Origin: a bacterium
GTDB lineage: Bacteria; UBA8248; JACPRG01; G963555815
DNA length: 64,000 nucleotides
Assembly: GCA_965261595.1 (NCBI GenBank)
Contig: CBDHDG010000006.1
Coordinates: 1,344,001-1,408,000, forward strand
Reading direction: 5' to 3'
Part shown: positions 9,430-28,314 of the stretch, in pieces
Layout: each line of letters opens with the position of its first letter
Position numbering within the stretch: the stretch's first letter is position 1
The notes under the pieces: generated by a model
Databases searched by the model: none
Seen by the model: the letters and a program-made list of their open reading frames with translations, nothing else
Told to the model about the DNA's origin: nothing
Made by a program: the position numbers and the translations under genes

Positions 9430-9480
9430 AATGTTGAGTGTAACCTCAACATACCTCCAATTCAAATCGCGACGATCAAT

Positions 9481-10284: not shown

Positions 10285-10285
10285 C

Positions 10286-11212: not shown

Positions 11213-11388
11213 CGAGACATCCCTCACCCCCTGAAACAATGCTCATTGTGCCAGGTCAGCACCTTGTTGCATGGATCATCGCGACGAAGTCTTATCATTG
11301 GCTTCATTCACCGCTGGGGCCAGTTTAACTGCCACATAAGTTCAACGCCGCCCGACGGCGCAAGTTTGATAAGGCGCGGTACCGGGTG

Positions 11389-11470: not shown

Positions 11471-13150
11471 CCGGAATTTCCCATATCCAATCCGGACAGG
11501 CCTGTACCGACCCCTCGTTGCTGTTTAAGTCAATTAGACCCCTCTCTCCCGGACCTGTCCATCCCATTTCAGGTGCCTGAAACCCTAATCGGAGCGTTAT
11601 CCACCATTGAAAATCATGCCACCCCTCCGGGTAGGCGAGCCTTCCCAGCAGGTCATCTGGAAGGGACAGAACATTCACCATTTTGTCCTCGGGTGGACTG
11701 CGCTGAGAGCGGTTAGACAGGTACGGGCCGCAATCGGTTGATCCGGTCCAGGATGAGAGCGAACACCTCCCTGGATACGGCTACCTCGGCCAACTGAAAG
11801 ATGATGTGCCGGACATGGCGCACAATCCGGCCGCCCATTTTGATGCGCTTGACCTGGAGGCTTCGCAGCGACCAGTGCTTGAGCTCCCTAGGCAAGGCTA
11901 GCCTCCGCAGGAAATTGCCCAGGTTGTACCCCAGGACGAAGAGAAGGAGCCGCACCTGGTTGCACACGAACCGGTGACAGGAAAGGCGTGTCCAGTTCAG
12001 GGCCTACTTGCCTTCCTTGATCCATGGCTCGGCTGTGCCTCGCTGGTTGTAGAAGTGCACGACCCCCTCGGGTCGAGCCGTCAGGTTCGTGACAATGAAT
12101 CCGACGCGAGGGAAGCGTTCGCCTGAGTGCCATTCCACCTTCGCCACCACCCCTCGGGGGTGGTCCCAGCTTCCAGCCTGATACAGGAAGTCGTGATAGA
12201 AGATGATGGGTCTCTTGGGCGGGCGACCGACCGGGCGAGTCAGCAGGAAGTCGATCCGTGGGTAGAGCACTTCGTTCGCAGGGAGCCGGATGGCGTAGAG
12301 GAAGCCACGCTCTTCCAAGTACTCATAGACCTCGGGGCTCGTAAAGGCGGCATCGGCCCGAAAGGAACGGCGAACATCAGCGTGCTCATAGCGGGCCGTG
12401 ATGGGCTCCAACAACTTTCGCCACCCATCGGCGCTGTGAACGTTGCCCGGACGCAACTCCGCCCCCTCGCAGTCCCCAAACTGGTTGAAGCAGAATAAGG
12501 GATGGTAGCAGAGGGAACCGAAGTGACCGTTATAGGCAGTCCCTTCCTGCTGTCCGTGCACCCGGCTTTCCGAGCTATCCATGTCCAGGATGACCCGCTG
12601 ATGCGGCGTGCGGCTCATGGCCCGCTCTACCCATTCCGCGTTCAGTTGCCTCAGCCTACTCAGGTTCTCCTCGTTGCAGAGAACTTCAGTCTCGAACCGG
12701 CTCCATGTGTTGGTACTGGCCGCCTGCTTCTCAAGTGCCCGCCGGCCAACTACGGCTTGCATAGCAGGGTCTCTCGCCAATCGCTCGGCATCGTTGGTGT
12801 CCTCGTACCCGGCCAGGCGACTATAGACTGACTGGCGCAATAGCGGCACCAACTCATGCTGGACGTTCCGGCCATGACGGATCTCTTGCAAGTGGGCTGG
12901 CGCTCTCACCGTCAAACCCAGCGCATCATCCAACTCCCGGCAGGCCAGCAATCCTGCATCTGAAGTGATTCTGGCTCCGTGAAAGTCAAGCCTCAGCCTA
13001 CGGTTAAAATGGACCCTCAATGCCGCCTTTTTCGCTTCACCCATAGGGTTCCCCCGCGAGAACGTGGCAGGGGGAAGCCAATACGCTGATTTTACATGAG
13101 AAAGCGCCTTTCGGTCTGTCGAATCTTATGACACAAATGGGAAATGCGGG
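11471..13150 (-). mobile_element. IS1380-family insertion sequence
   Basis: Imperfect terminal inverted repeats CCGGAATTTCCCATAT / CCCGCATTTCCCATTT flank the transposase. Confidence 0.85.
11713..13044 (-). pseudogene. IS1380 transposase with in-frame TAG at ~12004
   Basis: ITSDAGLL, LDMDSS, RADAAF, YNQRGTAE.WIKEGK*ALNWTRLSC. Confidence 0.9.
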
Positions 13151-14239
13151 ATGAGACACCGGGGCCGTTTTTTTGAATGTCTCCAGGACCTGGGCGGGCG
13201 TCAGGTAGTCCAGGGCCCAGTGGGGTCGAATGTGGTTATAGACTTGCTCCCACTCGCGAAGGCGGACGTTGAGCGAGGCCACCGTCCAGGGGAGTTCGTA
13301 CACCTCGTAGAACTCCTCCGTATGGGTCCTGTTGGCCCGCTCCACACGGCCGTTGAACTTGGGCGAGCGGGGCGGCAGCTCAAAGAGCAAAATCTCCCGC
13401 TCCGCGCACGCCGCCTCGAACACCGCCCGGAACTCCGAGCCTCCGTCTACCTGAATCGCCCGCAGCGGGAACGGAGCGCGCGCCTGAAGGGTGTCCAAAA
13501 ACCGCCGGGCGTAAAGGGCCGTGGCGCACGAGAAGACCTCCATCACGTCCCAGCGCGAGACCATGTCCCGGGCGGTGAATTGCTTCAACCTCACCCCGGC
13601 AAGGGGGGAAAGCTCGAGGGTGTCCACCTGGACCAGGTCTCCGGGACAATCGGACACATAGCCCTTGGGCTTGCGCGTGGCGTAAGGCCGCCGCGCCCGA
13701 CGCCGCTTCGCGCTCACCACCTTGCCCCTCGGCTCGACCAGCAGTCGCCGGCGCTTGAGATCGGCCAGGATGCGGCCCACCGTCGAGACCGAGGTCACCA
13801 ACCCCTCGCGTTGAAGCAGGACCGCCAGCTTGGCCTCTCCCCACCGGGGGTACTGCTCCCGAAGCTGCAAGACCGCCTTCACCAGCTCTGGCGACCACGT
13901 GGGCTGCCTCACCCGGCGCGGCCGGCGCGGCCGGCGCGTGCGCTCCTGCAGGGTCGGCAGGTCTCGGGGGTCAAACCGCTTCCGCCAGCGGTACAGCGTG
14001 GCCCGGCTCAGACCAAATGTGCTGCAAACCAATTTCGCATTCCCGCTCTCCCGCCAAAGGCTCAGGGCGCGAAGACGAGCCCGGCCCTCGGGGGACAACT
14101 CCACCGCCCCGTAGCCTCCTGCGCGCAGGGAGGCTACGGGGCCACCCAAACACTTGCATCCAGGGACCTCCTCTCTCGTGGCCCCTGGCACTCTACTCCC
14201 TAACCAAGGAGATGTCTCACATCTATCTGAACCTATACA
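13151..14239 (-). mobile_element. IS481-family element (copy 2), right inverted repeat interrupted by IS1380
   Basis: Left end TGTATAGGTTCAGA at 14239; transposase ORF 13037-14191 reads into IS1380 sequence. Confidence 0.9.
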
Positions 14240-14433: not shown

Positions 14434-14661
14434 TCACACCGGCCGCGCGTCCGGCAGGTACTTTTCCAGGCCGATGCGGATGGCGTCCACCGGACAGACG
14501 TCCTCACAATTCAGGCAGACGATGCAGGGGGCCTCTTCCAGGACCAGGAGCCGTTTTTCCTTCTGGGCGAATCCCAGACAGTCCACCGGGCAAGCTAGCA
14601 CGCACAGGGCGCAATCCACGCAGCTCGGAAGGACGCTGATCCGGACGGATTTAATCGGCAT
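14434..14661 (-). CDS. 2x[4Fe-4S] ferredoxin (AprB-like small subunit)
   Basis: CVDCALCVLACP and CIVCLNCEDVCP. Confidence 0.95.
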   Translation of the reverse strand: MPIKSVRISVLPSCVDCALCVLACPVDCLGFAQKEKRLLVLEEAPCIVCLNCEDVCPVDAIRIGLEKYLPDARPV

Positions 14662-16423
14662 GGGCGCTCCGAATCGGCACGGGAAGGGAGACCCGGGTGA
14701 CGTCTACCTCTCTTTTGAAAGGCTCTTGACCCCGGAGGATGACGTCGTGGCAGATCCAGTTTTCCTGGTCGGTATTCGGATAATCCGTTCGAAAATGGCA
14801 TCCTCGGCTCTCCGTTCGAAAACAGGCCGAGCGGACGACCACCTCGCCCACTTCAACCAGTGTCTCGGCCTCCAACGCGGCTTTGACCTCGAACGGCGTC
14901 CGGGCGTGTAAACTCGGAAGGCGATCGCGCTTGATCGCTTGCAAATCCTCAAGGGAAGCCTCCAGGCGTTCTCCGGACCGGAGCGGCCCGGCGTTCTCCC
15001 ACATGGTTCTCTGAAGTTCCGAGCGGATCCCGGCGGGATCGCCCTCTTCGCTTGGCGGCCGGTCCCACCCCCGGATATTCGCCAGACGCTCTTGCACGGC
15101 TTCCCTGTCCCAGTCCGCATCGGACACGAGGAGAGGGTTGTCGCGGGCGCGTTCGGCGGCGGCCCTTCCCGCCCGCGATCCGAAGACCAGGCAGTCCGAG
15201 AAGGCGTTCCCCCCCCTGCGGCGGGCGCCGTGGACGGGCGCGGCCGATTCACCGGCGGCGTAGAGTCCCGGCAGATTGGTCTCGCACCACGGTTTGATCC
15301 CGATCCCCCCCAGGTGAGTGATGGCCCCGGGAGAGATCCGGAGCGTACGGTTCTTCCAGTCGAACCCCCTCAACAGGCAGCGCAGGTCGTATCTGCCTGG
15401 AAGGTCGGATTCCCAAAGCTCTTCGGGAACACCCCGAAGATCGAGCCAGATGGAGTCCCCGTCGCCCCTCCCTTCAAAGATTTCGATGGCAATGGCCCGG
15501 GAGATGATCTCGCGCACGTCGGTGGAGAGCTCCCCATATCGCTTCTGGAAATGGACGGTGGGCTCCCCCGTTGGAGTCAGAGCACTATCGAGAAACGCCT
15601 CGCCTTTCCCGTTCCGATAGACGGCGTGAAGCCTGGCGGTGCAGGGAAGCAGATACCACATCGGCAGTCCGGGCTCCATCATGGTGTGAGGAGAGAACAT
15701 GGCGAAGGACATATCCACCAACTCTGCCCCGGCCCGGTAGGCGGCGGCGTACCCGTCTCCCGTCGTGACATTGGTGGTGTAGTTGATCCGGTAAAGCTCG
15801 CCCGCGCCTCCGGTCGCCAGGATGGTCGAAGCGGCCCGGCAGACGATGAAATCCCCCTGGTAGATGCGATAGAGCAGCGCGCCCGCCACCCCGTCTTCGC
15901 CTGTCAGGAGGTCGACCAGGACGCAACCTGGCATCATATGGACGCCCAGGCGCTTGCATTCTTCGGCCATCCCTCGGGTGACAACCTGTCCGCCCCGGGA
16001 AGGGTTTGCGTCAACTTTCGTCGATCCGTCGGCCAGCTCGATGGACTCGGGAAGACCGTACGTGCACAAGGCCTCGTAGTGGGGGATGTTGAATTCCTGG
16101 AGCTCGAGGATCCGCCCGGGCGCTTCCAGGGCCATGATCTCCACCAGGGTCTGGTCTGCCAGATACTCCCCGTATTCCACGGTGTCCCGGAAGTGCTCGT
16201 CCGGTGTGTCGTATTGCTTTTCGACGCTCGTATCCAGATTCGGGAGCGCCGCCTTGAAGCCTCCCCCTGCCAGGGCCGTGTTGTTGTTGACGCCGATGAG
16301 GGCCTTGTCGATGAGAAGGACTTTTTGCCCGAACCGGCGGGCCTCGATGGCCGCCCGCAGGCCGGCCAGCCCGGTCCCGATGATCAGGACGTCCGTCTCG
16401 CGTTGAACCCAGGTTTTCTTCAT
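14651..16423 (-). CDS. FAD-dependent oxidoreductase, SdhA/FrdA/NadB/AprA family
   Basis: IIGTGLAGL, LATGG, TGDG, GLYAAGE, RTESRGCHFRTDYP. Confidence 0.9.
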   Translation of the reverse strand: MKKTWVQRETDVLIIGTGLAGLRAAIEARRFGQKVLLIDKALIGVNNNTALAGGGFKAALPNLDTSVEKQYDTPDEHFRDTVEYGEYLADQTLVEIMALEAPGRILELQEFNIPHYEALCTYGLPESIELADGSTKVDANPSRGGQVVTRGMAEECKRLGVHMMPGCVLVDLLTGEDGVAGALLYRIYQGDFIVCRAASTILATGGAGELYRINYTTNVTTGDGYAAAYRAGAELVDMSFAMFSPHTMMEPGLPMWYLLPCTARLHAVYRNGKGEAFLDSALTPTGEPTVHFQKRYGELSTDVREIISRAIAIEIFEGRGDGDSIWLDLRGVPEELWESDLPGRYDLRCLLRGFDWKNRTLRISPGAITHLGGIGIKPWCETNLPGLYAAGESAAPVHGARRRGGNAFSDCLVFGSRAGRAAAERARDNPLLVSDADWDREAVQERLANIRGWDRPPSEEGDPAGIRSELQRTMWENAGPLRSGERLEASLEDLQAIKRDRLPSLHARTPFEVKAALEAETLVEVGEVVVRSACFRTESRGCHFRTDYPNTDQENWICHDVILRGQEPFKREVDVTRVSLPVPIRSAHAD

Positions 16424-16540
16424 GCCTTTATCAAGCCTTTGTCATGCCGGGTGATTCGTGAGTGCATTATTTGGAGTTTGCAGCGGGAGGCGCTTTTTGA
16501 AAGGCGCCCCCCCGCACCCCTCAGAACACATGTCAAGCAT

Positions 16541-17125
16541 TCATTCCTCCCGTGAATGGCTCTCCTTCAGGGCTCGCTGGAACCGGTAGCGGCATTCGAG
16601 CTTGTCCTCGATCATCGAGGGAACGGGGTCGCCGGTGGTGACCTTGAGATCGACCAGAACATGACTTGTCGTTCCGAGCAGTCCGGGAAGCACCTCCTTC
16701 CACGCCTGGAGGTCGGCTACTTCGCGCGTATCGCCGATTCCGGCTTCCCGAGCGATGGCATCGAACCGAATATTTTCGGGCCCGGGAAGCGGGAACCCCC
16801 CGGATGATTCGTAAGTCCCGTTGTTGAACACCAAATGGAGGAGATTCGATGGATTCTGTTGCCCCGCCGTCGCCAGCGATCCCAGATTCATCAGGAGTGC
16901 GCCGTCTCCATCCAGGACAATCACCTTGCGGTCCGGATTTGACAGGCTGAGTCCCAGGCCGATGGAAGAGGCGAGGCCCATGCCTCCGGAGTAGTAATTC
17001 AGATCGCGGGGCCGCAGATGATGCCACTCGTCGATCAGCCCTCCCACGGTGGCGACCACCAATTCGTCGGTCACGCGCTCGGCCAGGGCTGCCAGGCAAT
17101 CCGTTCGTTTCATCCCGCGACTCAT
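16541..17125 (-). CDS. Sulfopyruvate/phosphonopyruvate decarboxylase-like beta subunit (ThDP-binding)
   Basis: GGMGLASSIGLG, DGDGALLMN...NNGTYESSG ThDP motif; ComE-like. Confidence 0.85.
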   Translation of the reverse strand: MSRGMKRTDCLAALAERVTDELVVATVGGLIDEWHHLRPRDLNYYSGGMGLASSIGLGLSLSNPDRKVIVLDGDGALLMNLGSLATAGQQNPSNLLHLVFNNGTYESSGGFPLPGPENIRFDAIAREAGIGDTREVADLQAWKEVLPGLLGTTSHVLVDLKVTTGDPVPSMIEDKLECRYRFQRALKESHSREE

Positions 17126-17631
17126 TCGATCAGCGCTTCCTGCCCCAGCAGCACGGCCACGGGCTGTTTGCCGAGCATCGCCCGCTCCCGGGCCGTCTCG
17201 ATGCGGTCCGCCTCTCCCGGCCGGTACACCTCGTATATCGGGATCCGCAGGGCTTCCAGGACCGGGCGGGTGACCTCTCCCTCCAGCAGATGGTAGTCGC
17301 GGTTGTCCGCAAGCCCGGGTCCCCCCCGGTAACTGACCAGCATCAGAAGGGGAATCCGGTGCTTCAGGGGCAGGGTTGCCAGCGCGTTGGCCGAGGCCAG
17401 AAAGCCCGTATTCTGAATCAACAGGGCTGCGCCCTCGCCCCCGAGTTCCAACCCCGCGCAAACCCCGATGCCTTCATCTTCTCTGGCAACGGGAACATCG
17501 ATGAATTCGGGGTCCTCCTTCAAGAGTCGCAAAAGCGGGACGAGCCATGTTTCCGGCAGGCCCACGATGTATTTGACCCCCGCTTTCCGCAAGGATTCGG
17601 CAATGCGGGCGGGGCCGGATTGCCGAATCAT
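17122..17631 (-). CDS. Sulfopyruvate decarboxylase-like alpha subunit
   Basis: VAREDEGIGVCAG, IQNTG, VSYRG; ComD-like. Confidence 0.85.
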   Translation of the reverse strand: MIRQSGPARIAESLRKAGVKYIVGLPETWLVPLLRLLKEDPEFIDVPVAREDEGIGVCAGLELGGEGAALLIQNTGFLASANALATLPLKHRIPLLMLVSYRGGPGLADNRDYHLLEGEVTRPVLEALRIPIYEVYRPGEADRIETARERAMLGKQPVAVLLGQEALIE

Positions 17632-18464
17632 GGATTCCCGCCGCGCGCGGCTTGGGGCCTTCCGAAGAGGAGCGTTTTCCCGAGCTGGGGACGGCCGGCG
17701 GTTTGAGTGGTCTCGAGTTGTCCCCGAATGTGAGTGACGAGACGGCCGAACCGGACGTCCGTCTCGATGCCAATCTCCCGCGGCCGCGGCAAGTCCACGG
17801 TGACGACATCCCGAATCGTTCCCGGGCGGGCGGAAAACACCACCACCCGATCAGAAAGGAAGACCGCCTCGGAAATGCTGTGGGTCACGAAGAGGACGGT
17901 CTTCCCGCTTTGCATCCAGATGTCCTGGAGCTCCAGATGCATCTGCTCCCGGGTCAAGGCGTCCAACGCCCCGAACGGCTCGTCCATGAGAAGGAGCGGG
18001 GGGTCATGGATGAGGGCCCGGCAGATCGCGGTCCGTTGCTGCATGCCTCCGGAAAGCTGGTAGGGATACTTGTCCTCAAAGCCTTCCAGTCCCACCAAGT
18101 CCAGGAGCGCGCGGGCGCGGCGGGTGTAATCCCTCTTGTCGAGCTTCCGGACCTCGACCTGAAGCAGGATGTTTCGAAGGATCGTTCTCCAGCGGAGCAG
18201 GACCGGGTTTTGGAAGACAAACCCCACATCCTGGGTGGGCCCCCGGACGGACTGTCCCCGGATCCGCACCTCTCCCCCGGTCGGGTGCAGGAGTCCGGCG
18301 GTGATTTTCAACAGGGTGGTCTTCCCGCAGCCGCTCGGGCCGACGAAAGAGACAAACTCTCCGTCCAACGCCTGAAAGTCGATGTCCTTCAGGGCGCAGA
18401 GGGTCTCTCCCTCGTCTACATAGTCCATTCGCAATCCTGCGAACTCAATGGTTGAATCCATCAT
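17628..18464 (-). CDS. NitT/TauT-family ABC transporter ATP-binding protein
   Basis: GPSGCGKT, LSGGMQQR, LLMDEPFGALD. Confidence 0.95.
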   Translation of the reverse strand: MMDSTIEFAGLRMDYVDEGETLCALKDIDFQALDGEFVSFVGPSGCGKTTLLKITAGLLHPTGGEVRIRGQSVRGPTQDVGFVFQNPVLLRWRTILRNILLQVEVRKLDKRDYTRRARALLDLVGLEGFEDKYPYQLSGGMQQRTAICRALIHDPPLLLMDEPFGALDALTREQMHLELQDIWMQSGKTVLFVTHSISEAVFLSDRVVVFSARPGTIRDVVTVDLPRPREIGIETDVRFGRLVTHIRGQLETTQTAGRPQLGKTLLFGRPQAARGGNP

Positions 18465-18582
18465 CCCTTTTCCCGAGACTGCCCCAAACCGGCCTTCCCG
18501 GCTTTCAAGCGTTCAGAAAAAGATCTAGGGAGAGGAGGGATCGGCCCTCCTCTCCCTTCGCCCGATCGTGACCGGGCCGCCC

Positions 18583-19587
18583 TTAGGGAATAAAGGCGTT
18601 GCTGAAGTAGTTGTTGGGCGGCATGGTCTTCTTGATGAGCTTGTTCTTCTCGAGAACATTCTGGGTCCTGGCCCAGTCGGCATCGGCCTGCCAGCCCAGG
18701 GGCTTGCCTTTCGTGGCTTCACTCACCAGGAGATTGAAGGTCCACCGGAGCTCCTTGCCCAAGACCGCCCGCTTCTTGTGAGGAAAGCGCTCTTTCACAT
18801 AATCCGCGGACTCATCGGGATGGGCCTTGGAATACACGATCCCTTTTTTGACGGCCCGCAGGAAACGGCGGATGAGCCTGGGATTCCCTTTCTCGGTCGC
18901 GGTGTTGATGATAATGCCGTTGGCCACCACATTCATTCCCCAGTCGCCCAAATGCATCGCGCTCACCTTCGCCCCCTTCCCTTCCAGGCTGGGGACCTCG
19001 GTGACGCTGTAACCGATCATCCCGATCACCTTCCCGGCGAGCAGGGCGCGGGATTTTCCGGACCGTCCCAGCGCGGCCAGCCCGACCTGGCAGGGATTGA
19101 TGTTATTGGTCTTAAGGAATGCCGCGAAAAGCGCAGTTCCCGAGCCCTTTCCGCTTGTGCTCACCGTCTTCCCCAAGAGGTCTTTCGGAGATCTGACGTT
19201 CGACTTTTTCAATGACACGATGGCCAAGGGGCTTTTCTGCATGATCCCGAAGACGGATTTTACGGGGATTCCGCGGGTGACCCCTTGGAGGGTGCTCACG
19301 CCGGCGGCGAAGGCGAACGTATCGTTCTTCGCGCCCATGAGTTTGACCACCGTGCTTGATCCCGTGCCCTCTCCGATCTTCACGGACATTTCTTCGGCCT
19401 TGTAAAAGCCCTTTTTTTCTCCGATGAAGAAGACGGCATGGGTCCCGTAGATCTTCCAGTCCAGCCTCAGGGAAACGTCATCGGCCGCCACCGACGGTGC
19501 GACCCATCCGGTGGTGATCGCAAAGACCCCCGCGAGGAGCGAAAACCCCATTTTGAATAACCACTGCCGGCATGCTCTTGCTCTCAT
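18583..19587 (-). CDS. NMT1/THI5-like ABC substrate-binding protein
   Basis: Signal peptide, LRLDW...KGFYKAE, SPKDLLGKTV. Confidence 0.9.
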   Translation of the reverse strand: MRARACRQWLFKMGFSLLAGVFAITTGWVAPSVAADDVSLRLDWKIYGTHAVFFIGEKKGFYKAEEMSVKIGEGTGSSTVVKLMGAKNDTFAFAAGVSTLQGVTRGIPVKSVFGIMQKSPLAIVSLKKSNVRSPKDLLGKTVSTSGKGSGTALFAAFLKTNNINPCQVGLAALGRSGKSRALLAGKVIGMIGYSVTEVPSLEGKGAKVSAMHLGDWGMNVVANGIIINTATEKGNPRLIRRFLRAVKKGIVYSKAHPDESADYVKERFPHKKRAVLGKELRWTFNLLVSEATKGKPLGWQADADWARTQNVLEKNKLIKKTMPPNNYFSNAFIP

Positions 19588-19631
19588 CTTCTCTCCCTCC
19601 CGTTTGAAAACTTCCTTTTGGAAAACAACCC

Positions 19632-20495
19632 TCACGCAGTATTCTCCGCACCCTCTTTCGAGACACGGACCCCTTGCTGCTTCTCTCCCCGGACGACCAC
19701 ATGCCAGGGCAGCAGCCACTTCTCAAGCTGGATCACCACGAAAAACAGGCCCCCCCCCAGAATCATCAAGAGGATCAACGTGGAGAACAGAAGCTCGGTG
19801 TCGAGCTCGGTGTTCGCGTATTGCAGAAGATAACCGAGACCGCGATCGGAGCCGATGAATTCTCCTACGATGGCTCCGATGAGCGAGAGGGTCACGGCCA
19901 CTTTTAGGCCCCCGAAAAAATACGGGAGCGCGTTTGGAATCCGAATCTTGGAGAAAACCTGAAAATCACTTGGGGACATAATCCGGATCAGGTCCAATTC
20001 GTCGTTCTCGACCGATTTCAAGCCCAGGGCGGTCTGAATCACAATGGGGAAGAAGGCGATGATGAAGCTGATCAGAACTTTCGGGAGGATCCCCCACCCG
20101 AACCAGATAATGAGCAATGGACCGATGGCAATCTTGGGGAAACATTGCGAGAACACCAGAAGGGGCATGATGGCCCGTTCGAGGGTCTGGGACCAGACCA
20201 ACATCATGGCGAAAGGAACGCCGATCACGATGCTCAACGCCAATCCCCCAATGGTCGCGTTGACGGTCGCCACACTGTGGCGCATGAGCAGATGAATCTT
20301 CTCCACCAGGGTGATAAAGACCGATTCCGGAGGCGGCAGAATATAATCCGGGACCTTGAAGCCGTGGACGATGAGCGCCCAGAGACCGATCGCCACGATG
20401 ACGGCGGCCGCCGGGTACAGGACCCGGATGAAGGCGGGAGGTTGTACAGCCCGGATCTGGACCGGTTTTCCCCGGGCGGAGTCCTTTTCGTTCAC
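19632..20495 (-). CDS. NitT/TauT-family ABC permease
   Basis: LPPPESV, PKIAIGPLLIIWFGWG, IVGEFIGSDRGLG. Confidence 0.9.
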   Translation of the reverse strand: MNEKDSARGKPVQIRAVQPPAFIRVLYPAAAVIVAIGLWALIVHGFKVPDYILPPPESVFITLVEKIHLLMRHSVATVNATIGGLALSIVIGVPFAMMLVWSQTLERAIMPLLVFSQCFPKIAIGPLLIIWFGWGILPKVLISFIIAFFPIVIQTALGLKSVENDELDLIRIMSPSDFQVFSKIRIPNALPYFFGGLKVAVTLSLIGAIVGEFIGSDRGLGYLLQYANTELDTELLFSTLILLMILGGGLFFVVIQLEKWLLPWHVVVRGEKQQGVRVSKEGAENTA

Positions 20496-20782
20496 GGGTG
20501 GGCCTCCCCCGTCTCCAGATAGACGTGGAGACAATCCGGTTTGCAGACCTCTTCGCAGCTGTAGCAAAGGATGCAGGCATCGAGTCGCAGGATGTAGGCC
20601 ACCTTGACGTCGGTATCCAGCTCCAGGCAGTCCGTTGGGCAGGCCAATACGCAGAGGTCGCAGCCCGTGCACGCCTCCTTATCGATTTCGAGGGAAAGCC
20701 CCGGAGAGGGGATGAACGGAGGCGGCTCCCACGCCGACCGGTCCGGTTTTCGTTTGAGACTGGCGACACCTGTCGATCTCAT
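20492..20782 (-). CDS. 2x[4Fe-4S] ferredoxin
   Basis: CTGCDLCVLACP and CILCYSCEEVC. Confidence 0.9.
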   Translation of the reverse strand: MRSTGVASLKRKPDRSAWEPPPFIPSPGLSLEIDKEACTGCDLCVLACPTDCLELDTDVKVAYILRLDACILCYSCEEVCKPDCLHVYLETGEAHP

Positions 20783-22581
20783 TCCACCTGCACCTCTTCC
20801 TTTTCCCAGATCAGCTCATCCTCGCTCCCCATGCTCTTGGGACGGCCGGCCTGGGCCGCGGGATCCGAAAAAGAACGATGCCGTTCGGTCGGGAGCCGCA
20901 CCCGGGTGACCGGGACGTCGATTTCGGACCTTTCCATCCCGTCGGCCGTCTTTAGGATACAAAAATTCTTCAGGAACCGGTCGTTGTCGATCTCCGGACA
21001 ATCCTCCCGATAATGTGTTCCACGGCTTTCGGCCCGGGCGAGTGCGGACCGGGCGGTGATCTCGTGCGAAAGGAGCATGTATTCCGCCTCCAGGGCGGTG
21101 CGAAGCTTCCGGGCTCCGGGGGCGAACAGTTTCGGCATCCGGTTCTTCCGGACGTCTTCCAGCGCCTCCAGGCAGCGCGTCAATCCTTCCTCCGAGCGGA
21201 TGACGCCGACCCCCTCCCAGCCGATCCGCTTCAAGTCCCGGGCCAGTTCGTCCGGATCCCCTTCCGGTGTCGGCTTCCGCTCCAAAAGCTCCGCGATGCG
21301 GCTGAGGGATCCCTGCAACCGCTCCTCGGGGTAGGACCGCGTGGAGATGCCGGCCGCGCGCTGCGCCGCCTCACGGCCCGCCCGGGCCCCGAATACGAGG
21401 CAGTCGGTGAGCGCGTTTCCTCCGAGCCGTCTGGCCCCGTGAATCAGGCCCGCCGCCTCTCCGGCGGCATACAGACCGGGGACCGTGCTCTCACAGACAT
21501 CATTGATGTGGATGCCCCCGAGATTCGTGATGGCGCCGGGAATCACCCGCATCATTTTCTCCTGGATCGGAAAATCCCTGAGAATGGCGTCCCGGTTATG
21601 TCTGCCCGGAATGTCCTTGTCCCAATACTCCGGGGGAACGTGGCGGCAATCCAGAAACACGGCACCATCCTCGTCGCGGCCTTCGTGGATCTCTGTGGCG
21701 ATGGCCAGGGAGATGGTCTCGCGGACATCAGGCGGAAGCGCCCCATAGCGGACGGGGAAGGGATCATCCATCGTTCCGACGACCTTCAGGTATTTCGGCA
21801 GGAAGGCCTCGCCCTCGGAGTTGACCAGCTTCCCATAAAACCTGGCGAAGCAGGGGAGGACGTACCACATCGGGAGACCGGGTTCGTCCAGGATGTACGG
21901 GTCGAACATGACGAACTCCATCCCGATCAGCTCCGCTCCCGCTTCATAGGCCATGGCGTAGCCGTCGCCGACAATGGCCAGGGAGACGTTGTTGCGGGCA
22001 AAGGAGGCCCCCGCGCCCCCGGTGGTCAGGATGACCGCCCCCGCCCGGATCTCGATAAACTTCTCGTTGAAAAAGCTGAAGAACAGCCCTCCGACGACCT
22101 CGCCCTCCTCCACCAAAAGCTCGATGAGGATGGTATTGACGCGGGTCTTCACCCCCTGGGACTTGATGTTGGAAGCGAAGGCCTTCGTCACGTCGTAGCC
22201 TCCGTGCTCCGAAGTGCCCTGGGTGCAGAGAGACATGAAGTTCTTGATCCCGACGTCCTCCAGCTCCAGGACACGGGCCGGGGCCTCGATGGTCAGGGCC
22301 TCGACCAGGGGCTGCTCGCTCATGTAGTCGCCGTAGTAGATGGTGTCCTGAAAATGTCCTTCGGGCGTCAGGTATTGTTTCTCGATCAGGGTGTCCATCC
22401 CCGGGAGACAGGTCTTGAAGCCTCCCCCCGCGAAGGCGCTGTTGCCGGTGAGGCCGATCAGCCCCTTGTCTACCAGAAGAACATTCGCCCCGAACCGGTG
22501 GGCCTCGGCCGCGGCGCGCAGCCCCGCAAGACCCGCTCCCACGACCAGCACGTCCACCGAATGACTGAAGTGCGGGATCAT
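20779..22581 (-). CDS. FAD-dependent oxidoreductase, SdhA/FrdA/AprA family (paralog of 14651-16423)
   Basis: VVGAGLAGL, LTTGG, GDG, GLYAAGE, RAESRGTHYREDCP. Confidence 0.9.
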   Translation of the reverse strand: MIPHFSHSVDVLVVGAGLAGLRAAAEAHRFGANVLLVDKGLIGLTGNSAFAGGGFKTCLPGMDTLIEKQYLTPEGHFQDTIYYGDYMSEQPLVEALTIEAPARVLELEDVGIKNFMSLCTQGTSEHGGYDVTKAFASNIKSQGVKTRVNTILIELLVEEGEVVGGLFFSFFNEKFIEIRAGAVILTTGGAGASFARNNVSLAIVGDGYAMAYEAGAELIGMEFVMFDPYILDEPGLPMWYVLPCFARFYGKLVNSEGEAFLPKYLKVVGTMDDPFPVRYGALPPDVRETISLAIATEIHEGRDEDGAVFLDCRHVPPEYWDKDIPGRHNRDAILRDFPIQEKMMRVIPGAITNLGGIHINDVCESTVPGLYAAGEAAGLIHGARRLGGNALTDCLVFGARAGREAAQRAAGISTRSYPEERLQGSLSRIAELLERKPTPEGDPDELARDLKRIGWEGVGVIRSEEGLTRCLEALEDVRKNRMPKLFAPGARKLRTALEAEYMLLSHEITARSALARAESRGTHYREDCPEIDNDRFLKNFCILKTADGMERSEIDVPVTRVRLPTERHRSFSDPAAQAGRPKSMGSEDELIWEKEEVQVE

Positions 22582-23297
22582 GAGACCGTCTCCGCCAAAC
22601 CCGCTTCCGGCGCGGCGCCCTGACTCTTTTCTCCCCAGAAGGCGCCCAGGAGCCGCTGGCGAGTCAACTGGAGATGGCGCTCCATGACCCCCCGGGCCTG
22701 TTCCGCGTCCCGGCGGCGCAAGGCTTCGATCAATTCGACGTGGTCTCCGCCGGTTTCCTCGAGCTGGGGTAGGGAATAGCTGATGAAGATCACCCTCAGG
22801 AGGTCTTCGAGGACTTTCGTGATGGCCCGGGCCATGGACCGGTTGCCGGAGGCGGCCGCCAATTTCCGATGAAACAGGATGTTGGCTCCTGCATACGCCT
22901 CCAGCTCGTTCTGTCCACCCAGGCGGTTCCCGGCCGGCGGCTGCGGAAGGATGAGCCCCTCCAATTCATCGAGCTCGGCCGCCGATATCCGACTTGCGGC
23001 CAACTCGATGGAGACGCATTCCAGAATCTCGCGGAGCTCGAGATTTTCCACCACTTCCTGAGGATCAACGGGCGCCACGAGATATCCTTTGCGCGGAAGC
23101 AGCCTGATGAAGCGGTCCTTCACCAATTCCGAGAGGGCCTCGCGGACAGGGGTCTTGCTTACGCCGAAGGTACGGGCCAGATCCTTTTCCTGGAGAAATT
23201 CTCCGGGAGGGAGGACTCCGGTGATGAGATCGTTTTTCAGGCTTGCGTAGATCCGGTCCTTGATGGATGCCTTGTTTTCCGAGATTTCCGGCAGCAT
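22578..23297 (-). CDS. GntR-family (FCD) transcriptional regulator
   Basis: LARTFGVSKTPVREAL winged HTH; FH...SGN, DH..LI FCD motifs. Confidence 0.95.
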   Translation of the reverse strand: MLPEISENKASIKDRIYASLKNDLITGVLPPGEFLQEKDLARTFGVSKTPVREALSELVKDRFIRLLPRKGYLVAPVDPQEVVENLELREILECVSIELAASRISAAELDELEGLILPQPPAGNRLGGQNELEAYAGANILFHRKLAAASGNRSMARAITKVLEDLLRVIFISYSLPQLEETGGDHVELIEALRRRDAEQARGVMERHLQLTRQRLLGAFWGEKSQGAAPEAGLAETVS

Positions 23298-23350
23298 TCA
23301 GACACCCCTGGATTGATGTCGAGGACCAGATACTCTACTGATATTTCTTG

Positions 23351-23379
23351 ACGATATCAAAAGTATTTCTTTTTGTCAA
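23351..23379 (-). promoter_or_regulatory. Putative sigma70 promoter of the GntR operon
   Basis: TTGACA-17 bp-TATCGT on the minus strand, upstream of the GntR start. Confidence 0.55.
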
Positions 23380-23731
23380 CCATCATTTTCCAATTTTTAG
23401 AGGTCGCCGAATCATCCTTCAGAATGAGGGGGTGGAAGGCCCTTTGGCTCTTTCGATTCAGCCGATCTCCTCGATTTACCCAGGATTCTGAAAATGCGCG
23501 TACGAGCGGACCGAGCCTGTCGCGAGTCCTTTCGGAAGTCTCGGACTCGCAAAATGGTAGTGCCTTGCTCGAGGTTTCATCCTCCCGGAAACCATGCCGG
23601 GGTGCATGAAACGTCAGCGTTGATCCGGCCAGGAGCTTTGTGTTAGCCTTCTCTCAAAGACAAAATCCCGAAATTTGTCTTTGGGGCCGCATCATTCCGG
23701 AAAGCGGCGCCGGGTGAAATTCCCCCGGGGC

Positions 23732-23800
23732 GCGATCGAGCAGGTCGTCCTGGCGGAAGAATTGGGGTTCGAATCGGTCTTCATCAGCGAATGCCATCTG
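23732..23800 (+). pseudogene. Remnant of luciferase-like monooxygenase N-terminus
   Basis: AIEQVVLAEELGFESVFISECH resembles the LLM AEELGFDSxWxxEHH motif. Confidence 0.45.
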
Positions 23801-23811
23801 AGGAAGGAGAT

Positions 23812-25176
23812 ATGGCTGACACAACCTTGATCAAGGGCCGCTTTGTTCTGACGGTGGACCCCGAGGACCGAGTGATTGAGCGTGGAGGCGTGGTGATTCA
23901 GGGGGATCGGATCGCGGCGGTTGGAAGCGCGGAAGAGCTGAAGAAGGAATACCCCGGCTGCGAGGTTGTGGACGGCGCCCGTCACGCCGTGATTCCCGGG
24001 CTCGTCAACCTCCACATGCACTCCGGGCTCCTCCGAGGAACCGCGGAGGACCTGCCGGTTTTCGAGTGGCTCTACAAGTACATCGATCCCATGCACAAGG
24101 CGCTGAACGAGGAGGAAGCGGCGGCGGCGTCCATGCTCTCCTATGCCGAGAACCTGAAGGCCGGCGCCACGTGTGTCCTGGACATGTACCGGTATATGCA
24201 CCGGGCGGCGGCGGCGGCCGAGCGCCTCGGCCTCCGGGCGAACCTCGCCCCGTACGTGGCCGATCGGCCCGGTTACGAGTATTTCGAGAGCCCGGAAGAC
24301 AACCGGCGCCTGATCGAGAGCCACCATGGCTGCGCGGACGGCCGGGTCCGGGTCTGGGTCGGCCTGGAGCATTTGACCTATTCCACGGACGCCGCCTTCA
24401 AGAAGGCGGTGGAATGGGCCGACAAATATGGCGTGGGAATCCACATTCACGCGGATGAATCATTGAGCATGGCCCAGACCGTTGAGCGCAATGAGGGCAA
24501 ACGGGAAGTGGAAATCCTTCACGACAAGGGCCTGTTGGGGGAGCGCACCATCCTTGCGCACTGTGTCTGGCTGAGCCAGCCGGAGATGGCTCTGGTGGCC
24601 GAGTCGGGCACCCGCGTGGCCCACTGTCCCGTCTCGAACCTCAAGCTCGCCTCCGGTGTCGCTCCGGTTCCGGAGATGCATCGTCAGGGCATCATCGTGG
24701 GAATCGGCAGCGACGGGGTGAAGGAGAACAACAGCCTCGAGCTCTGGGATGAGATGAAGGTGGCGTCGATCGTGCAGAAGGGATACCGGATGGACCCCAC
24801 CCTGGCGACGGCCCCGACTGTCTTCCGAATGGCCACCATCGACGGAGCGCGGGCCCTTGGGCTGGGGGAGGAGATCGGCTCCCTGGAGCCGGGCAAGAAG
24901 GCGGACCTCGTCCTGGTGAACCTCCATACGCTGCACATGGCGCCGGTGCTGGGCGGCGAGTTCTACAACGTGACGCATAACCTGGTGTACGCCACCCAGG
25001 GCAGCGACGTGGAACACGTCATGGTCGATGGGAAATGGGTCGTCCGCGATGGCGGACTTGTCAACGGGGACGAGGGCGAGATCATTGATCGGGCGACGGC
25101 CGCCGCCGTGTCTCTGCTGGAGCGGCGGAAGCAGTTCGTCCCGCATGACATCAAGAGCCCTTTGGAGATTTTCTGA
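23812..25176 (+). CDS. Amidohydrolase, MtaD/Atz/Trz deaminase family
   Basis: PGLVNLHMH, HIHADE, LAHCVW, HCPVSNLKLASG, GSDG, GKKADLV. Confidence 0.9.
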   Translation: MADTTLIKGRFVLTVDPEDRVIERGGVVIQGDRIAAVGSAEELKKEYPGCEVVDGARHAVIPGLVNLHMHSGLLRGTAEDLPVFEWLYKYIDPMHKALNEEEAAAASMLSYAENLKAGATCVLDMYRYMHRAAAAAERLGLRANLAPYVADRPGYEYFESPEDNRRLIESHHGCADGRVRVWVGLEHLTYSTDAAFKKAVEWADKYGVGIHIHADESLSMAQTVERNEGKREVEILHDKGLLGERTILAHCVWLSQPEMALVAESGTRVAHCPVSNLKLASGVAPVPEMHRQGIIVGIGSDGVKENNSLELWDEMKVASIVQKGYRMDPTLATAPTVFRMATIDGARALGLGEEIGSLEPGKKADLVLVNLHTLHMAPVLGGEFYNVTHNLVYATQGSDVEHVMVDGKWVVRDGGLVNGDEGEIIDRATAAAVSLLERRKQFVPHDIKSPLEIF

Positions 25177-25445: not shown

Positions 25446-26857
25446 TGGAGTTACCCCGTTTCAGTGGACAGTTTAGGGCTGTCGTCCCCAGCCCTGAGGT
25501 GGGCGACAGCCGGTGGACGTAAAGTCTTCTCCCGATCCGATAGATAGGGTGCCCCCGGGGGGTATGTCTTGACCTTTGGCTCGCTGCTCCGGGAAGCACC
25601 GGGGACGGCTCGAGCCGGACGATGAGCGTTGCGCACTGCACGTGGCGTTTCCTTCGCCGCGGACCGCTCGAAGTCGTTGGGGCTGAGGTAACCCAGGGCC
25701 GAATGACGACGGCGTGGGTTGTACCAGCCTTCGATGAATTGGAAGATCGCCAGGCGCGCTTCGGCCTGGGTACGGAACGAGCGCCGGTCGATGAGCTCGC
25801 ACTCCAGCGTGGCAAAGAAGCTCTCGGCCATGGCGTTGTCGAAGCAATCCCCGGCCGACCCGGTCGAGGGAACCACCCCCATCTCCCGGCACCGCTTGCC
25901 GAAGGCGAGCGAAGTGTACTGTGATCCCCTGTCGGAGTGATGCACGACCCCGTCGGGGCGGCGCTGTCCCAACGCCATGTTCAGCGCCCCGAGCACCAGT
26001 TCGGTGCGAAGATGGTGGGTCATGGGACCATCCCACCACCCGGCGGCTGAACACGTCGAGCACGATGGCCAGGTACACGAACCCCGTCCAGGTCGGCACG
26101 TAGGTCACGTCGGCCACCCAAAGCCGATCCGGCGCATCGGCCTGGAACTGGCGTTCGACCCGGTCCGGGACCACACAATGGCTCTGGTCCACGCGCGTAG
26201 TGCGCATGCCTCGGCGTCGGCTCACCCCGGCCAACCCTGCCTCGCGCATCAGCCGAGCCACCCGTTTGCGGCTCACCCGGCAGCCGCCGGCCATCAGCTC
26301 GGCATGGACCCGAGGCGCCCCGTAGGTGCCACCAGATACCTCGTGGATGGCCCGGATCGTGCCACGCAACGCCTCCTCGCGCTTCGCACGATTCGAACGC
26401 CCACGGCTTCGCCACGCGTAGTATCCGCTGGGGGAGACACCCAGCCGACGGCACATCGTGGCCACCCGATGGCAGGCCTGATTCGCCTTCACGAGCTCGA
26501 AGACTTCGCCCGGACCGAGCCGGTCTCCCGAGCGAACCAAGCCGTAGCTTTTGCCAGTATCTCGCGTTCTTCGCGAAGCTGACGATTGTCCCGACGAAGC
26601 CGCCGTAGCTCCTCGAGCTCTGAGCTTGTCAGACCGTCCTCACGACGGCCCTCGTCGCGGTCGGCCTGGCGCACCCAGTTGCGAATCGCCGAAGCGGAAC
26701 ACTCGAACTCCCGGGCCAGCTCCCCGGGCGTACGGCCCGAGCGAACCAGCTCAACCATCTGGCGCCGGTATTCCGGCGCGTAGGGTGAATGAGTTTTCGG
26801 CATCTGAACACCTCCTCCCCACAGTCTGAAGGTGTCCACAAAAACGGGTCAACTCCA
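25446..26857 (-). mobile_element. IS3-family element (copy 2 of 313-1723); orfA 26489-26803, orfB frameshifted near 26025
   Basis: Near-identical sequence to copy 1; ends TGGAGTTACCCCG and TGGAGTTGACCCG. Confidence 0.95.
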
Positions 26858-27910: not shown

Positions 27911-28314
27911 ATGCAAAACGTCGTGAAGAAGGTCCGAAAGCGCAACCAGGAGGCGGTGGTCTCGGGCGCACAAAGGATCTACGAGGCCCACAGCCGCCGG
28001 GCGGCCATCGCCGCCTTTTGGCGATGTGCCAAGCAGTGGCGAGGGCGGGAGCCCAAGGCGGTGGCGTGCATCGAGAGCGACCTCGAGACGTTGTTGGCCC
28101 ACTTCCAAGAGCCCCCCGCCCTTCGGGTCACCCTGCGCACGATAAACCCCATTGAGCGGGTCTTTCGGGAGGTGAGACGAAGAACCAGACCCATGACCGT
28201 CATGAACAACAACGAGTCCCTGGAACGCGTCGCCTACAGCGTGTTCCACCGCATTAACACCTAGTGGGAGACAAACCCTCTCTGCACTTCTACACAAAAC
28301 TCGTGACATTACCC
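27911..28314 (+). mobile_element. IS256-family 3' remnant (transposase C-terminus with TAG, plus right end)
   Basis: LRTINPIERVFREVRRRTR motif; terminal CTACACAAAACTCGTGACATTACC. Confidence 0.8.

Follow-up and report, generated by a model that had tools for sequence, protein, structure and literature searches.

A window of 64,000 nucleotides (nt) from a bacterium of the lineage UBA8248; JACPRG01; G963555815 (assembly GCA_965261595.1, contig CBDHDG010000006.1, positions 1,344,001 to 1,408,000 of the forward strand) carries a ten-gene operon (14434-23297, minus strand) encoding a GntR regulator, two flavoproteins, each paired with a small ferredoxin, an ATP-binding cassette (ABC) importer and a two-subunit thiamine diphosphate (ThDP) enzyme. 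What is distinctive here is the flavoenzymes; judging by profile scores and phylogeny, both belong to an uncharacterised clade of the SdhA/NadB superfamily and are not AprA, and this clade has a distinctive partner protein and a remodelled active site. The operon is conserved, flanked by insertion sequences (IS) and horizontally mobile. As regards its role, the reading we favour, to which we give an about even chance, is a catabolic module under GntR/FCD control that would import an acid, dehydrogenate it, decarboxylate the product with the ThDP enzyme and carry out a second dehydrogenation, the substrate being neither a sulfonate nor a phosphonate.

The genes of the operon are listed below from the regulator onwards; all coordinates in the text refer to the window unless another contig is named, and lengths are given in amino acids (aa).

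22578-23297 (minus), GntR+FCD regulator, 239 aa; GntR 61.9 bits, FCD 81.6 bits
20779-22581 (minus), flavoprotein 1, 600 aa; FAD_binding_2 169.3 bits, Succ_DH_flav_C 66.8 bits
20492-20782 (minus), ferredoxin 1, 96 aa; two CxxCxxCxxxC motifs
19632-20495 (minus), ABC permease, 287 aa; BPD_transp_1 98.8 bits; GTG start
18583-19587 (minus), periplasmic binding protein of the NMT1/THI5 family, 334 aa; NMT1 150.9 bits
17628-18464 (minus), ABC ATPase, 278 aa; ABC_tran 112.7 bits
17122-17631 (minus), alpha subunit of the split ThDP enzyme (ComD/RhiE/LumK class), 169 aa; TPP_enzyme_N 28.5 versus 26.8 bits
16541-17125 (minus), beta subunit of the split ThDP enzyme (ComE/RhiF/LumL class), 194 aa; TPP_enzyme_C 58.2 bits
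14651-16423 (minus), flavoprotein 2, 590 aa; FAD_binding_2 169.2 bits, Succ_DH_flav_C 81.6 bits
14434-14661 (minus), ferredoxin 2, 75 aa; two CxxCxxCxxxC motifs

The gene order is the one described in the first-pass annotation, made from the sequence alone, and its picture of ten co-oriented and mostly overlapping genes holds in full. Six of the nine junctions, read directly, are overlaps: five of 4 nt (regulator/flavoprotein 1, flavoprotein 1/ferredoxin 1, ferredoxin 1/permease, ATPase/ThDP alpha and ThDP alpha/ThDP beta) and one of 11 nt, where ferredoxin 2 starts inside the flavoprotein 2 gene; the remaining three are gaps of 44, 118 and 117 nt. The ATG of ferredoxin 1 overlaps the stop codon of flavoprotein 1 (ATGA), and the GTG start of the permease overlaps the stop codon of ferredoxin 1 (GTGA), the last bases of the GTG opening the stop. 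As had also been noted, none of the ten genes encodes an SdhB-type subunit or a membrane anchor.

Flavoproteins, ferredoxin partners and active sites

The two flavoproteins, which are 46% identical to each other, are composed of the FAD_binding_2 and Succ_DH_flav_C domains of the SdhA/FrdA/NadB/TfrA superfamily, and neither reaches a curated NCBIfam cut-off. The best model for both is TfrA (NF004900; 312 bits for flavoprotein 1 and 332.5 bits for flavoprotein 2, cut-off 718); the scores were 255.9 and 298.2 bits, respectively, for SdhA/FrdA (TIGR01812, cut-off 567.3), 277 bits for SdhA (NF005866, cut-off 819) and 192.7 and 237.2 bits for NadB (TIGR00551, cut-off 452.75). The AprA model (TIGR02061, cut-off 641.75), run on the whole genome, gave 35.0 bits with the N-terminal and 21.1 bits with the C-terminal part of flavoprotein 2, and no match to flavoprotein 1 at E <= 0.001. 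Among solved structures, SdhA/FrdA chains were the best matches of both flavoproteins (165-206 bits); solved AprA scored 53 bits against flavoprotein 2, in the N-terminal part, which binds flavin adenine dinucleotide (FAD), only, and is not among the 54 matches of flavoprotein 1. An archaeal alpha/beta enzyme resembling phosphoadenosine phosphosulfate (PAPS) reductase (PDB code 8a8o) scored 44-62 bits against the flavoproteins.

A tree of 59 sequences (IQ-TREE, LG+G4, quick search, with the Shimodaira-Hasegawa-like approximate likelihood ratio test, SH-aLRT, as the only support measure) comprised the two flavoproteins of the window, 47 database homologs, the seven other paralogs of the genome and SdhA, FrdA and NadB of E. 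coli. The sequences of the flavoprotein 1 type (Flavo1, 7 sequences) and of the flavoprotein 2 type (Flavo2, 8 sequences) are each monophyletic (SH-aLRT 100), and both types lie inside a clade of 36 sequences (support 100), the sister of which is a group of 12 mostly archaeal TfrA-like sequences; the three E. coli proteins and the genome's own true SdhA fall outside this clade. The deep placements are unsure, since several outgroup branches are long, and for AprA and experimentally verified TfrA, which are not in the tree, the profile and PDB scores stand in. A phylogeny had been named in the first-pass annotation as a check on its reading; it places the flavoproteins in an uncharacterised clade and not in a characterised one with an unrelated substrate.

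Wider searches gave few relatives. A metagenome scan with the flavoprotein alignment returned 80 loci with SdhA-family genes 26-41% identical and without the synteny of the clade; the scan patterns were generic FAD motifs, and these loci are used here only as a negative set for the ferredoxin partner. All 64 records from a plasmid collection were below 60% identity (those listed, 30-32%) and were mostly true sdhA, and the ESM Atlas gave nothing beyond unnamed 'FAD-binding protein' clusters. A literature search that covered few subscription journals found no description of a cluster of an SdhA-like flavoprotein, a ferredoxin and a ComDE-like enzyme, nor of any SdhA-type flavoprotein whose partner subunit is a stand-alone di-cluster ferredoxin.

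All eight cysteines of the two ferredoxin motifs are invariant in 6/6 aligned sequences of both types. The ferredoxin genes are translationally coupled to the flavoprotein genes, both here and at the related locus L002, which lies on the complete 5.17-Mb chromosome of a metagenome-assembled genome (MAG) from another genus than that of the source. Among 94 loci, a small open reading frame (ORF) with two cluster motifs was found only in L001-L006, all of this clade, and none of the 80 loci with more distant metagenomic SdhA-like genes has one. A profile search yielded 92 ferredoxin relatives at E <= 1e-6 among 4832 candidates, the closest of which are on contigs sized like those of the flavoprotein homologs; a tblastn search of the genome with both ferredoxins (E <= 1e-8) gave nothing beyond the operon and a duplicate on contig C3. 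Each ~600-aa SdhA-family flavoprotein accordingly has its own small 2x[4Fe-4S] partner, as had been claimed, with which it would form a complex. The likeness to AprAB, which had been seen at the same time, survives as architecture (an FAD subunit next to a small 2x[4Fe-4S] subunit) and not as homology: the AprB model (TIGR02060) gave 28.6 bits with ferredoxin 1 against a cut-off of 135.65, aprB does not appear in the list of the 25 best families of ferredoxin 2, and, because the AprA and AprB scores are both far below the cut-offs, the resemblance is not ancestral.

The active sites were compared using a MAFFT alignment to FrdA, SdhA and NadB of E. coli (K-12 record) and HMMER alignments to PDB chains. 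In FrdA numbering, and following the literature on FrdA and flavocytochrome c3, Arg287 is the proton-shuttle residue, Arg390 binds a carboxylate and His232, Thr244-Glu245 and His355 bind the dicarboxylate. Only two of these six residues, R287 and R390, are kept in both flavoproteins. The H232 position is Asp in the Flavo1 type and Ser in the Flavo2 type, that of H355 is Ile throughout the 36-sequence clade, and T244/E245 are retained by neither aligner, HMMER and MAFFT pairing this loop differently; at the site of the covalent-FAD (8-alpha) His there is Asn, or Gly-Asn. These replacements are conserved within each type. In the Arg390 region, flavoprotein 2 has an Arg-rich GARRRGGN motif, and flavoprotein 1 has RRL where flavoprotein 2 has RRR. 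As R287 and R390 are kept, dehydrogenation chemistry is probably retained beside one carboxylate, with hydride transfer to FAD and Arg-assisted proton transfer; the second carboxylate site, for succinate, fumarate or aspartate, is gone, as far as the alignments tell. The Asp at the H232 site speaks against a sulfonate, a phosphonate or another distal anionic group in the substrate of flavoprotein 1, and the GARRRGGN motif leaves an anionic substrate possible for flavoprotein 2.

The genome encodes seven other SdhA-like paralogs. One of them (L095) is a true SdhA (974.6 bits, cut-off 819); the six others (L096-L101) are orphans that pass no curated cut-off (best TfrA, 348-425 versus 718 bits) and keep the equivalent of His355 without that of His232.

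Conservation and mobility of the operon

A scan of species-representative genomes revealed two loci carrying the gene set, L001 and L002. At L002, tblastn with all ten proteins found the same ten genes in the same order with 69-85% aa identity: 75% for the regulator, 83% and 84% for flavoproteins 1 and 2, 69% and 83% for ferredoxins 1 and 2, 78% for the permease, 80% for the binding protein, 85% for the ATPase and 75% and 77% for the ThDP alpha and beta subunits. At L001, the order is the same, with 93-99% identity, up to the contig end inside flavoprotein 2. Because the ten-gene order recurs in both, the clustering is more than chance, and the synteny search that had been proposed for this gene set thus finds it kept together in other genomes. 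The flanks of L002 are unrelated: one carries Mu-like prophage genes, and the other an Amidohydro_2 gene together with an IS1595 transposase; the conserved unit therefore extends from the regulator to ferredoxin 2 (14434-23297).

Among 51 species genomes of the source phylum, close orthologs (81-97% identity to one of the two flavoproteins) were found only in the source genome (G000), G001, G003 and G046, the last with flavoprotein 2 (81%) and ferredoxin 2 (76%) on a 3.3-kb contig; beyond these orthologs, the next best match was 38% identical, and G002, of the same genus as G003, has no such ortholog. More divergent assemblies appear to carry the families of the operon together, to judge from equal contig sizes. 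A size of 37,403 nt is common to the contigs of a Flavo1-type homolog (P0009, 68%), a Flavo2-type homolog (P0036), a ComE-like protein (P0159, 58%) and two ferredoxins (P0299, P0280), with similar coincidences at 10,981, 8,359, 12,517 and 165,145 nt. Overall, divergent homologs of flavoprotein 1 (68-79%), ThDP beta (57-80%), flavoprotein 2 and both ferredoxins are on same-sized contigs, and the contig sizes common to cluster members number 5/5 and 4 for the two flavoprotein types.

The surroundings of the operon in the window contain the following features:

13151-14092, IS copy on the 3' side of the operon; inverted repeat of 1724-2655 (97-99%)
23791-25176 (plus), TRZ/ATZ-type amidohydrolase or deaminase, 461 aa; Amidohydro_1 234.7 bits; divergent neighbour
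25446-26863, IS3-like copy on the far side of the amidohydrolase gene; repeats 307-1723 in inverted orientation (95-96%)

The operon and the divergent amidohydrolase gene are located between the IS copies, of which the first overlaps an ORF (13037-14191) with HTH_32 and rve_3 domains, and the second, IS3-like copy contains an ORF (25473-26540) with HTH_21 and rve domains. Two IS types, each present as an inverted pair (95-99% identical), bracket the ~24-kb segment that holds the operon, a layout that suggests a composite-transposon-like unit or an IS-mediated inversion. The amidohydrolase scores 380 against a cut-off of 522 with the 5'-deoxyadenosine deaminase model; it is present at L001 (genome G001) and was not found at L002 (genome G003), which leaves it outside the conserved unit.

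A truncated duplicate of the end of the operon lies on another contig of the source genome (G000:C3:267384-268449, or 3384-4449 of locus L102), containing the C-terminal 283 residues of flavoprotein 2 (95%) and ferredoxin 2 (97%) next to an ammonium transporter gene. Other traces of mobile DNA occur in the window: the stretch 7633-11239 (minus), probably part of an integrated mobile element, carries the gene of a large serine recombinase with Resolvase, Recombinase and Zn_ribbon_recom domains and, after it, that of an HNH_2 endonuclease; at 28450-29485 (plus), an NMT1 binding-protein gene extends over two frames (28450-29142 and 28979-29485) and is probably a frameshifted pseudogene, near a Mutator-transposase fragment (27911-28264) and a DruA-like fragment (26832-27458). 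Further away, the stretch 41833-52575 (plus) encodes threonine-synthase-like and CysK-like pyridoxal phosphate enzymes with overlapping ORFs, a DUF6282 protein, a D-glutamate-cyclase domain protein, a UbiD-family decarboxylase and a GMC oxidoreductase.

Near-identical sequence occurs in several organisms and in sequencing runs whose labels read seawater or marine metagenome. Three RNA libraries, from two studies, contain contigs that match the operon at 90-99% identity, and some of these contigs bridge gene junctions: regulator/flavoprotein 1 (22330-22673), binding protein/permease (19147-19715), ATPase/hairpin/binding protein (18075-19165) and ATPase/ThDP alpha (17280-17643 and 17325-17681). 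These contigs are a weak hint of expression; they do not show the strand or a single transcript, and DNA carry-over is possible. The stretch 23022-24524 has no cover from the RNA runs and is unfit as a silent control, because its cover in the DNA run is almost nil too; the seawater DNA run, which covers most of the operon, has almost no cover over the amidohydrolase gene either. Joints seen in the read placement were disregarded, their sides being short (21-45 letters).

The split ThDP enzyme, the importer and the regulator

The ThDP enzyme is divided into an alpha subunit (TPP_N) and a beta subunit (TPP_C) with no middle domain, which is the make-up of the ComDE type. The alpha subunit gave 110.2 bits with the ComD model (TIGR03845, cut-off 147.95) and the beta subunit 125.7 bits with the ComE model (TIGR03846, cut-off 221.5); the one-chain Ppd model (TIGR03297, cut-off 312.5) gave 67.2 and 127.3 bits, respectively. 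The ComDE-like decarboxylase of the first-pass annotation is thus upheld in its two-subunit make-up and not in its identity, all scores for ComD, ComE and Ppd being below the cut-offs. Across the genome, the ComE model found 16 split-type matches (82.8-143.4 bits) and the ComD model 16 matches (22.5-115.6 bits, two of them halves of one gene), none past its cut-off, and the operon pair takes rank 4 in both lists; in control genomes, the ComD and ComE models pass in 2/14. The nearest solved structure is RhiEF (9iz3), with 52.3 bits between the alpha subunit and RhiE (9iz3_A) and 76.8 bits between the beta subunit and RhiF (9iz3_B), and the accessible part of its report describes RhiEF as a phosphonopyruvate decarboxylase (PMC12141560).

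A third two-subunit ThDP enzyme, LumK/LumL, is described in the accessible part of a 2025 report (PMC12746152), where such decarboxylases are called rare and earlier known only from the biosynthesis of coenzyme M and rhizocticin; LumKL, with subunits of 20 and 23 kDa, decarboxylates a quinoxaline carboxylic acid, a heterocyclic acid of the alpha-imino type, in lumichrome catabolism. Because of LumKL, as far as that text goes, the two-subunit class is not restricted to sulfopyruvate and phosphonopyruvate.

Split ThDP pairs recur in the genome beside Rieske oxygenases and NitT/TauT transporters, for example within the window at 30588-34054 and on contig C5 at 653-658 kb. The module at 30588-34054 (minus) contains a VanA-like Rieske oxygenase (33002-34054), an NMT1 binding protein (31828-32919), a ComD-like gene (31220-31780) and a ComE-like gene (30588-about 31223), and its ThDP pair has a 100%-identical copy at G000:C5:394917-395999; modules of a Rieske oxygenase, an ABC importer and a split ThDP enzyme lie at C5:653118-658363 (L103) and C7:976063-978194. 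In the operon, the flavoprotein-ferredoxin pairs occupy the place that the Rieske oxygenase has in those modules. The tblastn matches in the genome (E <= 1e-8) number 75 for the NMT1 binding protein, 34 for the TRZ/ATZ-like amidohydrolase, 29 for the VanA-like Rieske oxygenase and 15 and 17 for the ThDP subunits, and the sizes of these paralog families suggest a broad, uncharacterised catabolic repertoire.

An NMT1-type binding protein, a BPD_transp_1 permease and an ABC ATPase together have the composition of a NitT/TauT-class importer. The binding protein begins with an N-terminal signal-like segment and scores 59.9 bits with SsuA_fam (TIGR01728, cut-off 163.5); its nearest solved chains are 4nmy (75.5 bits), THI5 (49.4) and ThiY (45.5), the last being a pyrimidine-precursor binder, and no structure of TauA or SsuA is among its eight solved-structure matches. 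Direct comparison gave 21% identity and 32.7 bits with TauA of E. coli and no significant match to SsuA of E. coli (E = 0.41). The sulfonate importer of the TauT/SsuA kind, which the first-pass annotation had proposed, is accordingly not upheld: the binding protein is far below the SsuA_fam cut-off and nearer to ThiY/THI5 than to TauA or SsuA. The permease gave 111.5 bits with SaoP (cut-off 295) and 79.5 with TauC (cut-off 342), and the ATPase 232 bits with SaoA (cut-off 360) and 216 with TauB (cut-off 357); the names SaoA, SaoP and SaoX, which are the best NCBIfam names for the ABC components and lead to a preprint on selenoprotein families, were dropped, the scores being far below the cut-offs.

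The regulator contains an N-terminal GntR winged helix and a C-terminal FCD domain, as in the FadR/FCD subfamily, and its best NCBIfam match is phnR_burk (88.3 bits, cut-off 271.5), with no equivalog. GntR regulators of the FCD type generally sense carboxylic acids. Two candidate regulatory elements can be placed on the operon:

23332-23379 (minus), putative promoter preceding the regulator gene; TTGACA-17-TATCGT is the better of two sigma-70-like matches that overlap
18527-18557 (minus), G+C-rich stem-loop with a 13-bp stem, located where 118 nt separate the binding-protein gene from the ATPase gene

The best sigma-70-like site has 10/12 matches; the 10-kb region holds three such sites, where 1.5 would be expected. 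Both L001 and L002 retain the TTGACA hexamer and, immediately downstream, an AGATA-N11-TATCT inverted repeat; the two may represent the promoter and the operator, respectively. The stem of the hairpin is kept in L002 with changes on both arms, the T-run is not kept, and the structure is probably an intercistronic stabiliser of the mRNA or an attenuator.

Possible role of the operon and relation to known systems

On the best reading, the substrate would be an imported organic mono-carboxylic acid and not a C4-dicarboxylate, an amino-acid-like or N-heterocyclic carboxylate being likelier than a sulfonate or phosphonate. The GntR/FCD protein would repress the operon until this acid or a pathway intermediate binds, and the NitT/TauT-class ABC system, with its NMT1/ThiY-like binding protein, would import the acid. 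The flavoprotein-ferredoxin pairs would be two paralogous soluble enzymes, each composed of a flavoprotein with non-covalent FAD and a dedicated 2x[4Fe-4S] subunit. Both may catalyse alpha,beta dehydrogenations, acting on a C-C bond like SdhA or on a C-N bond like NadB; the one that acts first would yield either an alpha-keto acid, by way of an enol or imine, or a cyclic alpha-imino acid. The hydride would pass to FAD, with the conserved Arg as acid/base, and the electrons would exit singly via the two clusters, their acceptor being encoded by a gene that is not part of the operon. The split ThDP enzyme would decarboxylate the alpha-keto or alpha-imino acid from this first dehydrogenase, and the other flavoprotein-ferredoxin pair would dehydrogenate the decarboxylation product. 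The general logic of import, oxidation, decarboxylation and oxidation, already put forward in the first-pass annotation, is reasonable; the sulfonate or phosphonate substrate attached to it there disagrees with the scores of the ThDP subunits and the binding protein and with the lack of Xsc, PhnX and PhnA in the genome (see below).

Several points weigh against this scheme. The flavoprotein clade contains no characterised enzyme, and catalysis may run in either direction, because di-cluster ferredoxin subunits are common in reductases. The operon encodes neither the electron acceptor nor an aldehyde dehydrogenase or other downstream enzyme. For the ThDP subunits, the sulfopyruvate and phosphonopyruvate decarboxylase models still give the highest family scores, the nearest solved structure is RhiEF, with LumKL likened to them by its two-subunit make-up alone, and the ABC components also score best with NitT/TauT-class models. 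The TRZ/ATZ amidohydrolase, which might hint at an N-heterocycle, is not conserved with the operon in L002, and the co-occurrence of the families on divergent contigs is read from equal sizes and not from sequence seen.

A bolder version of the same scheme, which is speculative and in our view rather unlikely, regards the pairs as founders of an undescribed class of soluble SdhA/NadB-type dehydrogenases, each connected to a stand-alone di-cluster ferredoxin subunit, that, together with the split ThDP enzyme, would form a new pathway for a cyclic amino acid or an N-heterocyclic carboxylate, with NadB-like C-N dehydrogenation to an alpha-imino acid, ThDP-dependent decarboxylation of the 'heterocycle', which only LumKL is known to perform to date, and a second dehydrogenation.

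L-cysteate, 3-sulfolactate and phosphonoalanine are analogues of aspartate or malate, and perhaps such a C3 sulfonate or phosphonate is imported, oxidised by a flavoprotein-ferredoxin pair to sulfopyruvate or phosphonopyruvate, decarboxylated by the ComDE/Ppd-like enzyme to sulfoacetaldehyde or phosphonoacetaldehyde and processed further. This route would agree with the best ThDP scores and the RhiEF match, the class of the importer and the phosphonate-associated GntR model that is the regulator's best match; with its GARRRGGN motif, flavoprotein 2 would be suited to an anionic substrate, and a catabolic role of ComDE upstream of Xsc is also described in the accessible part of a preprint (bioRxiv 10.1101/2024.12.10.627767). 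All of those model scores are nevertheless under the curated cut-offs, no split-type ThDP paralog of the genome passes, with the operon pair only at rank 4 and the models passing in few of the controls, and TauA and SsuA are no close relatives of the binding protein. The genome, which is 96.7% complete, has no Xsc (best 319.3 bits, cut-off 676.4), PhnX (39 versus 220 bits) or PhnA (24 versus 408 bits), and the operon itself has no desulfonating enzyme, no C-P-cleaving enzyme and no sulfite exporter. In addition, SdhA, FrdA and NadB hold the distal anionic group with two His, neither of which is kept in the flavoproteins; flavoprotein 1 has Asp in place of one of them. Taken together, this makes a sulfonate or phosphonate route improbable.

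Both pairs may instead work reductively, as fumarate, urocanate and thiol:fumarate reductases do, with low-potential electrons, supplied via the di-cluster subunit, saturating C=C or C=N bonds on either side of the decarboxylation step; these could be part of a heteroaromatic ring or an enoate side chain, for instance. The family model with the best scores is that of a reductase, TfrA, and the sister group in the tree is the archaeal TfrA-like set; non-covalent FAD, to which the change of His to Asn points, is typical of reductases and NadB rather than of succinate dehydrogenases, and 2x[4Fe-4S] ferredoxin modules are usual in the delivery of low-potential electrons. On the other hand, the TfrA scores are far under 718, the fumarate-binding residues are missing and the operon contains no ferredoxin-reducing system. 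By its gene content, the host is an aerobe, with a haem-copper oxidase (COX1 at 508 bits) and many oxygenases. The sequence cannot tell the direction, and we regard the reductive one, too, as improbable.

The paralogous flavoproteins are always found together, each with its own ferredoxin, which could mean that the pairs are stereo-complementary and convert the D and L (or R and S) forms of one 2-amino or 2-hydroxy acid to one 2-oxo acid for the ThDP decarboxylase, in which case there would be two parallel entries and one decarboxylation, not three sequential steps. The pockets do differ, with D versus S at the H232 site, N versus H two residues past the H355 site and RRL versus RRR in the GARR(L/R)GGN motif, and there is only one further enzyme in the operon. 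However, there is no direct evidence for such a division, two well-separated conserved clades fit different substrates equally well, and the placement of the decarboxylase between the two pairs agrees with either arrangement; we consider it less probable still.

A biosynthetic cluster for a phosphonate or sulfonate natural product or for a cofactor is very improbable: ComDE and RhiEF, two of the split ThDP decarboxylases characterised so far, which number three, do serve biosynthesis according to the accessible parts of the reports (PMC12746152; PMC12141560), but the operon includes a binding-protein-dependent ABC importer and a GntR/FCD regulator, no phosphoenolpyruvate mutase, phosphosulfolactate synthase, non-ribosomal peptide synthetase, ligase or exporter was seen in it or at its conserved borders, and the genome holds many similar importer-linked modules.

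Should the favoured catabolic scheme be true, the SdhA/NadB fold would have been re-used, with an AprB-like electron module and without AprA ancestry, for non-dicarboxylate substrates, and the two-subunit ThDP decarboxylases, of which the accessible text of PMC12746152 counts three systems, would be a broad catabolic family in uncultured marine bacteria. The finding would be of greater interest if the heterocycle or imino-acid reading were confirmed; the ~15 split-ThDP paralogs of this marine aerobe would then represent a large unexplored family of such heterocycle decarboxylases. Gene surveys of the sulfur cycle would be misled by automatic labels for these genes, among them 'fumarate reductase (CoM/CoB) subunit A', 'sulfopyruvate decarboxylase' or 'sulfonate transporter', because none of the proteins concerned passes the curated family thresholds. 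Since the operon is compact and conserved, with a hint of expression in nature, it lends itself to expression work and to the screening of ligands.

Compared with known systems, the flavoproteins resemble SdhA, FrdA and NadB in the same two Pfam domains, in the best solved-structure matches and in the conserved Arg287 and Arg390; they differ in falling under every equivalog cut-off, in forming a separate clade, in the replacement of H232, T244, E245 and H355 and in the missing covalent-FAD His. Unlike SdhA and FrdA, they are accompanied by a di-cluster ferredoxin of 75-96 aa and not by a three-cluster SdhB/FrdB, and there is no membrane anchor. TfrA(B) is similar in providing the best NCBIfam model and the TfrA-like archaeal sister group and in being soluble without an anchor, whereas the missed cut-off, the lack of a TfrB-type subunit in the operon and the absent fumarate-binding residues separate the two. 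The similarity to AprAB and to 8a8o is one of architecture only, comprising a ~600-aa FAD subunit and an adjacent small subunit with two [4Fe-4S] clusters in a soluble enzyme; the AprA and AprB models remain far under the cut-off, and the host of the operon is an aerobe.

The ThDP enzyme shares with ComDE, RhiEF and LumKL the separate subunits of ~170 aa (TPP_N) and ~190 aa (TPP_C) encoded by overlapping genes, while it differs from ComDE and Ppd in scoring under the cut-offs and in being one of about 15 paralog pairs, none of which passes. The route for sulfolactate and 2,3-dihydroxypropane-1-sulfonate (DHPS), described in the accessible part of the same preprint (bioRxiv 10.1101/2024.12.10.627767) as leading from sulfolactate to sulfopyruvate, through ComDE to sulfoacetaldehyde and then to Xsc, likewise combines an oxidation with a subsequent decarboxylation of the ComDE type; here, by contrast, the genome has no Xsc, the oxidising enzymes are of another family and the binding protein is not SsuA- or TauA-like. 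NitT/TauT importers with NMT1/ThiY-type binding proteins have the same three components, although no equivalog is reached (SsuA_fam, as given above) and the nearest solved proteins are 4nmy, THI5 and ThiY. The labels AprAB and organosulfonate should not be applied to this operon.

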